Assembly (NCBI GenBank): GCA_001821015.1
Contig: MHRQ01000012.1
Location: forward strand, 3,459-38,428
Length of the DNA stretch: 34,970 nt
DNA from: Candidatus Taylorbacteria bacterium RIFCSPHIGHO2_02_FULL_46_13
GTDB taxonomy: Bacteria; Patescibacteriota; Minisyncoccia; Phycocordibacterales; DSPV01
Direction: 5' to 3'
The position numbers and the translations under genes are program-made. How positions within the stretch are numbered: position 1 is the first letter of the stretch; every line of letters begins with the position of its first letter. Below, in pieces: positions 26,154-26,624 of this stretch. The notes under the pieces were generated by a model that saw only the letters and a program-made list of their open reading frames with translations, had not been told where the DNA came from and made no database searches.

Positions 26154-26624
26154 TTAAATATATTCTCTTAAGATTCTCTTTAGGCTATTTTCCCAGTGTC
26201 CGCCATCATCTGATATAGCAATTGAAAGAAGCGCGTCTTTATGAGTTTTGAACCACTCAACTGTCTTAGGAAACTTTGTCTCACCTTTTCGGTTAGGCAT
26301 TACTATTTGTAAGAGATGATTAAGTTTATAGATGATGGGATACTGTCTGTTCCTTCGCTGTGAAATAAGATCTTTGACTATTTTATCTGTCTCAATTCGG
26401 CCCAGCCATTTTGTTGCCGCCTCATCGAATTTATCGCTTGGTATCTTTCCACTCTCGATGAGACTATGGACATATTGAGGCCCACTTCCCATTCTGTCAA
26501 AAGAATCAACGTGGTCCCAAATCGTATCTACGAACTCAACGGGGTCTTCTCGCCATTGACGGTCCAGACCTTCGTAAAATATTTGTGACGGATGCTTTTG
26601 AGGTTGTTCCGGTTGTTCTTTCAT
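26154..26624 (-). CDS. Hypothetical soluble 156-aa protein inserted between atpG and atpD
   Basis: The ATG at 26624 lies 4 nt after the atpG stop. Its stop lies 5 nt before the atpD ATG. No family recognised. A+T-rich relative to its neighbours. Confidence 0.7.

Follow-up and report, generated by a model that had tools for sequence, protein, structure and literature searches.

We describe here a small gene, orfX, situated between atpG and atpD in the ATP synthase operon of a patescibacterial genome of 0.89 Mb. In the reading that we consider probable, orfX is a lineage-specific passenger occupying an insertion-tolerant slot, and is neither a part of the ATP synthase nor a dedicated regulator of it. 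The gene is genuinely protein-coding and not a chance open reading frame, and it founds a very rare, undescribed family of all-alpha proteins with a DGGHW motif that has six known members and is patchily distributed. The atpG-atpD slot and the atpA-atpG slot are empty in most relatives, and hold unrelated cargo in roughly 12-18% of the genomes of the order. A place wedged between the gamma and beta genes is by itself no ground for annotating a protein as a subunit or a regulator, and the junctions of this essential and highly expressed operon appear to be places where small accessory genes, toxin-antitoxin modules included, land or are retained in the streamlined Patescibacteria.

Position, composition and expression of orfX

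The window, by which we mean the whole 34,970-nucleotide stretch of DNA that was analysed, contains the ATP synthase genes on its minus strand in the order atpF (30400-29888), atpH (29891-29511), atpA (29489-27960), a small hydrophobic ORF, atpG (26629..27600), orfX (26154..26624), atpD (24781..26148) and atpC (24764-24531), the last of which encodes an epsilon subunit of only 77 residues. The upstream neighbour of orfX encodes a gamma subunit of 323 residues (PF00231, E = 9.5e-88), for which the nearest named counterparts are those of 'Parcubacteria group bacterium GW2011_GWC2_48_17' and Candidatus Lloydbacteria, which assigns the window to the Parcubacteria group of Patescibacteria, and the downstream neighbour encodes a beta subunit of 455 residues that matches the Pfam ATP-synt_ab family. 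The earlier note on this DNA had described a 471-nt ORF wedged into the junction, and the coordinates confirm both the ORF and its spacing, with 4 nt (ATCC, 26625..26628, minus strand) between the atpG stop and the orfX start and 5 nt (CAACC, 26149..26153, minus strand) between the orfX stop and the atpD start. The view of orfX as a tightly packed addition to a canonical operon is thus supported. Translation from the ATG at 26624 gives a product of 156 residues. A longer reading of 199 residues, starting at 26753, was set aside; the homologues have N-termini that favour the 156-residue form, and the longer one would run over the last 125 nt of atpG. The protein contains 9.0% Lys, 8.3% Asp and 3.2% Trp, with a GRAVY score of -0.83 and a pI of 6.6, and no hydrophobic segment was seen in it, so that its initial description as soluble and rich in Trp, Asp and Lys is a fair one.

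The base composition of orfX had been taken as a sign of foreign origin, and the hand counts offered for this are exact, at 38.3% G+C for 26161-26280 and 56.7% for 25861-25920 within atpD. Over whole genes the values are 40.6% for orfX, 47.7% for atpG and 52.5% for atpD, with 45.7% for the genome, and orfX ranks at the 7th percentile among 696 crude ORFs of its own genome; the native atpH (41.5%) and atpC (44%) are low as well. The local contrast is inflated because atpD, which ranks at the 97th percentile, is unusually GC-rich, and since the GC-rich genes of the F1 core account for most of the contrast, G+C content alone is no argument for foreign origin. What stands is the low rank of orfX, and this does little more than hint at an external source. 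We also note that atpD and atpA both lie at the 97th percentile (~52%), and that atpH, atpC and both of the ORFs inserted into the operon lie near 40-44%.

A consensus scan of the operon strand around 26100-26700 revealed no promoter-like or terminator-like sites, and co-transcription of orfX with the atp operon is therefore plausible. The nearest purine-rich stretch is 18 nt upstream of the orfX start, which is too far for a normal Shine-Dalgarno interaction. Because the spacers are only 4 and 5 nt long, because promoter- and terminator-like sites are absent, and because there is no Shine-Dalgarno sequence at a normal distance, we propose that orfX would be transcribed by read-through from the atp promoter and translated by termination-reinitiation after atpG, with atpD in turn being reinitiated after orfX. 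The tight coupling at both ends of the gene could also reflect selection for co-expression with the F1 subunits, a point against the passenger reading. At some distance from the operon, the window also contains a SAM (S-box) riboswitch on the plus strand (13807-13907; 54.4 bits, the gathering score being 44.4), which lies upstream of an ORF at 13973-15151.

A rare helical protein family and its genomic contexts

Homologues of orfX do occur elsewhere, a point on which the earlier note had allowed for the opposite outcome. When 1.84 billion cluster representatives were searched exhaustively with phmmer, five true homologues emerged (P0008, P0009, P0010, P0011 and P0013), which are 129-165 residues long and share 25-50% identity with the query (E = 3.7e-43 to 4.8e-4). 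The six sequences align over their full length with 14 invariant columns, which include the C-terminal D140-G-G-H-W144 and a D..A...WL motif. A further candidate from this search, the WD40 protein P0012, proved to be a repeat artefact and was dropped. A word-indexed protein search with orfX returned only the self-match, no paralogue was found in its own genome, and neither orfX nor any of its five homologues has a match in Pfam, NCBIfam, PHROGs or PADLOC; searches of PDB sequences, with the single sequence and with a profile, gave only noise (E > 0.2). The statement that the protein matches no recognised family is therefore borne out, and we suggest that the family merits an entry of its own.

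Modelling with AlphaFold2 and structural comparison with Foldseek, both suggested as checks when the ORF was first noticed, gave a confident all-alpha model and no fold match in the PDB or BFVD. With the small family alignment the model contains nine helices, with a pLDDT of 83 and a pTM of 0.80, and the model built from the single sequence is similar (pLDDT 74). Foldseek comparison of both models with the PDB and BFVD yielded generic helical repeats only (E ≥ 0.37, TM ≤ 0.49), and the best TM-score of the better model against the PDB is 0.42. Among the weak generic matches were 14-3-3, ENTH/CID and ARM/TPR proteins, and we do not take these as homology. The product of orfX would be cytosolic, an alpha-helical bundle or solenoid that lacks the signatures of an enzyme. 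Because the model is all-helical and there are no matches to enzyme families, we suppose that the protein would most likely bind another macromolecule, in an adaptor-like or an immunity/antitoxin-like manner, and that any benefit it confers would be unrelated to ATP synthesis.

At least 23 contigs, drawn from several metagenome samples, encode the identical orfX protein within surrounding DNA that is 99-100% identical, and there are no substitutions inside orfX across these gene-carrying contigs, although contigs this similar (99-100% identity) leave little room for any. The cluster formed at 90% identity also includes one variant with a 15-residue in-frame deletion and one truncated variant. 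These variants, the confinement of the gene to a single population and the lack of a known function would all suit a decaying or neutral remnant, an inherited ORF that has escaped selection and is tolerated since operon expression is left intact. We consider this very unlikely, however, in that orfX is full length and keeps all 14 of the residues invariant in the family, is identical on those 23 or more contigs from different samples, and resides in a streamlined 0.89-Mb genome of the kind from which useless DNA is usually lost.

The genomic contexts of the homologues are dispersed. The gene for the closest of them, P0008 (50% identity), whose locus was retrieved with the three closest sequences of the family, is flanked by polA and murD, reads in their direction and is set off from them by spacers of 27 and 14 nt; P0011 adjoins rplL/rplJ and has an rve-type integrase gene nearby; P0013 adjoins Band_7, rplK and nusG; and P0010 is encoded upstream of a membrane-protein gene. 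All four of the homologues with a readable context thus lie outside atp operons, and the six members found among the 1.84 billion representatives occupy five different neighbourhoods, with no conserved partner gene found beside orfX or beside its homologues. Across 400 other genomes of the order, 169 of them with an atpG, a single match was seen, which is weak and partial and lies between a NUDIX-like gene and recA. No match to orfX was found in 60 relatives, the five other species of the same genus among them, and the survey of atpG-atpD junctions that had been suggested at the outset showed a slot that is empty in most relatives and holds unrelated cargo in others. Close relatives without orfX have beta subunits 79-89% identical to that encoded here, with 85-89% for the five species of the same genus, and the 77-residue form of epsilon is common to all five and, among the further relatives examined, to most of the family, irrespective of orfX.

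These distributions bear directly on the possibility that orfX serves the ATP synthase of this one species as an accessory or regulatory factor, for instance a trans-acting inhibitor or a gamma/beta assembly chaperone. An inhibitor would take the place of the missing C-terminal helices of the 77-residue epsilon, and translational coupling would provide for stoichiometric co-expression. The soluble, helical protein, the epsilon subunit lacking a C-terminal domain, and the exact placement of the gene between gamma and beta on the same strand with spacers of 4 and 5 nt could all be accommodated in such a scheme. It is nevertheless opposed by the four context-known homologues, all outside atp operons, by the failure to find orfX in relatives that have the same short epsilon and beta subunits 79-89% identical, and by the filling of the same slot elsewhere with unrelated genes that include toxin-antitoxin modules. 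Moreover, no similarity of orfX was detected to AtpI, AtpZ/R, the epsilon C-terminal domain, zeta/DUF1476, IF1 or Atp11/Atp12 in Pfam, NCBIfam, PDB sequences or Foldseek, the Pfam and NCBIfam results for AtpI, AtpZ/R, zeta, IF1 and Atp11/12 standing specifically against an accessory factor. The accessory or regulatory role put forward when the ORF was first noticed is accordingly not upheld, and we regard it as highly improbable; a dispensable passenger is the most likely description of orfX.

Occupancy of the atpG-atpD slot and the arrival of orfX

Within the genus the atpG-atpD slot has three different cargos, orfX included, and three near-empty sites. One species (G002) has a membrane protein with an FtsK_gamma domain in a 762-nt gap, another (G001) has an unrelated 118-residue ORF in a 529-nt gap, and the remaining three (G003, G004 and G005) have gaps of only 33-132 nt. 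In a genome of the same family (G007) the slot holds a four-helix protein of the 23S_rRNA_IVP type. To survey the slot more widely, atpG (PF00231) and atpD were located in 401 genomes of the order, and the 137 genomes that have both genes on one contig and strand, among the matches listed, form the survey set; gap lengths were taken from alignment ends corrected to gene ends, such that the fractions, again among the matches listed, are approximate. On this basis atpG and atpD are separated by a median of 52 nt, and among these matches 24 of the 137 genomes have more than 300 nt between them. One of the 24 is an operon split, with 36.7 kb between the two genes on the same strand (G122, contig C1). 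We also note that in another genome (G110) atpA lies 117 kb away from atpG.

Cargo was read in 20 of the 24 large gaps and is almost always on the operon strand. Families confirmed by Pfam are 23S_rRNA_IVP, HicA with UPF0150, ParE, PIN, PemK, NUDIX, Ham1 and SET. Among the toxins, HicA is paired with a UPF0150/HicB-like protein in two genomes, ParE with a putative antitoxin, PIN with a small protein and PemK/MazF with a metalloprotease-like gene. Other gaps hold 23S_rRNA_IVP proteins, NUDIX, Ham1/RdgB either by itself or together with NUDIX, a protein with a SET domain, members of an acidic family about 120 residues long, and several ORFs that could not be assigned to a family. No relation of any of this cargo to orfX was found. 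Further loci carry the acidic family in two Lloydbacteria and IVP-type proteins in other Patescibacteria. The acidic proteins (..EDxxDAxD..LRxxAxDKSxxEEEE..DD) were seen in the slot of G275 and G208 (loci L040 and L042) and of the Lloydbacteria loci L059 and L061, and this family, which is present in at least four genomes of different lineages, may, unlike orfX, be genuinely linked to the atpG-atpD slot.

The presence of HicAB, ParE, PIN and PemK modules in the same slot of other genomes raises the possibility that orfX is itself a component of a conflict system, such as an orphan antitoxin, an immunity gene or a small defence or anti-defence gene, that is kept by addiction or by phage pressure. 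Its patchy distribution, the integrase gene near one homologue, and a small helical protein with conserved Trp residues are what such a component might show. Against this, orfX is solitary, and neither it nor any homologue has a conserved partner gene beside it, so that it does not form part of a two-gene module of type II toxin-antitoxin kind; PADLOC, PHROG and Pfam give no match to a toxin, an antitoxin, an immunity protein or a known defence system; and no relatives of orfX were found in phage and plasmid collections searched by tblastn or in a scan of viral contigs. We therefore think a conflict-system role distinctly unlikely.

A passenger in a permissive slot remains the reading we prefer, and the permissiveness is not special to the gamma-beta junction, because the atpA-atpG junction, taken as a control, behaves similarly, with gaps of more than 300 nt in 16 of the 137 genomes among the matches listed. 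In a sample too small to establish a contrast, gaps of this length numbered 6 in 39 Patescibacteria and 2 in 33 other bacteria. The diversity of the cargo does not necessarily reflect recent events throughout. For pairs of genomes that share a cargo, comparison of cargo identity with flank identity did not separate transfer from inheritance, and the HicAB cargo common to two genomes from distant families (G035 and G306) is conserved between them to the same degree as the flanking sequence. Some of the diversity in the slot may therefore represent old inheritance followed by loss and not recent insertion. Such slots provide a defined place in which to seek genes of fast turnover in organisms where recognisable mobile elements are almost absent.

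The operon has a second lineage-specific small ORF, orfY, which lies between atpA and atpG (27639..27944, or starting at 27917, minus strand), encodes a hydrophobic protein of 92-101 residues, and was not found in the loci of relatives that were checked. The region around it (window 27601-27966) has AT-rich inverted repeats on both sides of the ORF (I2-I4 and I8), including a perfect 16-nt pair at 27607-27622 and 27917-27932 and longer imperfect arms of up to 31 nt. In G003 and G022 the short gap between atpG and atpD is taken up by AT-rich motifs of a similar kind, which read ..KMQNDN...

A separate feature of this genome is a palindromic element of about 32 nt (ACATTCTGATATTCTG / CAGAATATCAGAATGT) that occurs in five copies. 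Two of these are in the window, at 27243-27274 in atpG and at 28045-28078 in atpA, and the others are elsewhere in the same genome (G000) at C1:20363-20395, C14:6378-6410 and C27:16450-16482. Four of the five copies are inside genes (atpG, atpA and two ORFs that are UvrC-like and TrmD-like) and are read in frame there as HS[HND]IL[EKQ]N[MI]R[MI], and the fifth, on C27, is in no long open frame. The copy in atpG corresponds to a 14-residue insertion (EHSDILQNIRMSDT) that is absent from the gamma subunits of the same genus and the same family. The element resembles the in-frame palindromic mini-insertions of Rickettsia (RPE-like).

The pattern of occupied and empty slots raises the question of how genes are inserted without breaking expression of the operon. 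The start region of orfX (CCATGAAAGAACAACCGGAACAA, 26604..26626, minus strand, repeat family D4) agrees in register with the start of atpD (CCATGAAAGGAAAAATCGTACAA, 26128-26150), 17 of the 23 positions being identical. The resemblance is short, with 9 exact matches within the 17/23 overall, and is marginally above chance; when the gap is searched for its best match to the atpD start, this is 16/23 in a shifted 23-nt window, a score reached by about 2% of shuffles. The similarity of the two sequences is suggestive only, and the orfX start could represent a remnant copy of the 5' end of atpD. A further case is found in G001 (L005 1372-1410), where a relic atpD 5' end is identical to the atpD start of G004 at 28 of 36 nt. 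It precedes the conserved part of the true atpD by 129 nt, and the N-terminus of the true gene product differs from it (MQTIKKETGRIVQIIG). The relic together with the differing N-terminus points to an insertion or duplication inside the first codons of atpD in that genome.

One could thus envisage that orfX was inserted into the extreme 5' end of atpD, with the end being regenerated and the original atpD start left driving orfX. Generalised, this would be a dedicated mechanism that inserts single-gene cassettes at the ends of core genes in atp junctions of Patescibacteria and regenerates those ends, such that orfX uses the original atpD start and its ribosome-loading context while the present atpD start is a regenerated copy. 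If true, orfX would be an obligately co-expressed hitch-hiker on ATP synthase translation. However, among 23 other occupied slots no duplication of the atpD start was detected apart from an AT-rich match in G001, separate from the relic described above, which about 0.7% of shuffles reach. Because this signature is absent from the other occupied slots tested, end-regeneration stays a minority reading, and the dedicated mechanism seems to us unlikely. No mobility gene, bounding repeat or att-like site was found flanking orfX, nor were bounding repeats found around the P0008 gene. Of the two options put forward in the earlier note, that of a selfish passenger fits the data, in spite of this lack of mobility genes and bounding repeats.

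Comparison with known systems

A literature search found no published description of variable small genes in atp-operon junctions, and there are several better-known situations with which orfX and its slot can be compared. One is the general concept of the integration hotspot, also called a region of genome plasticity, that has conserved core genes on either side. The atpG-atpD slot is like them in that the colinear core genes atpG and atpD flank a site that is either empty or filled with differing accessory genes, including toxin-antitoxin modules. It is unlike them in that it lies inside a tightly packed essential operon, lacks an integrase, a tRNA gene and an obvious att site, and usually carries just one small gene, which is oriented with the operon and spaced from its neighbours, stop to start, by a few nt.

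A second comparison is with the 23S_rRNA_IVP proteins (PF05635), which orfX resembles in being small, helical and wedged into a highly expressed housekeeping locus. Members of PF05635 occupy the same atpG-atpD slot in G007, G117 and G245, and probably in G374, L062 and L131. However, orfX is without sequence similarity to them; it has no match to the PF05635 profile, the HMM of its own family misses the IVP cargo, and its model has nine helices and is not a four-helix bundle.

Some elements integrate at a gene end and restore it in doing so, an example being prophage e14 of E. coli at the 3' end of icd. The possible copies of a target end at the border of the cargo, as in the orfX and atpD starts and in the relic of G001, recall such elements, although the orfX locus has neither an integrase nor an element body and the duplication in its own genome (G000) is short.

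Lastly, additional ORFs that do not encode subunits are well known among F-ATPase genes. AtpI and AtpZ/AtpR, the latter in N-ATPase operons, are membrane proteins that are conserved with the operon across many taxa, and in the atp operon of Rhodopseudomonas blastica a reading frame of unassigned identity was reportedly present between the gamma and beta genes. Like atpI and atpZ/atpR, orfX is an extra non-subunit ORF among the F-ATPase genes that is predicted to be co-transcribed with them; unlike these, it encodes a soluble protein, is found at an atp position in one population only, and has its relatives outside atp operons. With the R. blastica reading frame, as this is said to be arranged, orfX shares its location at the same gamma/beta junction.
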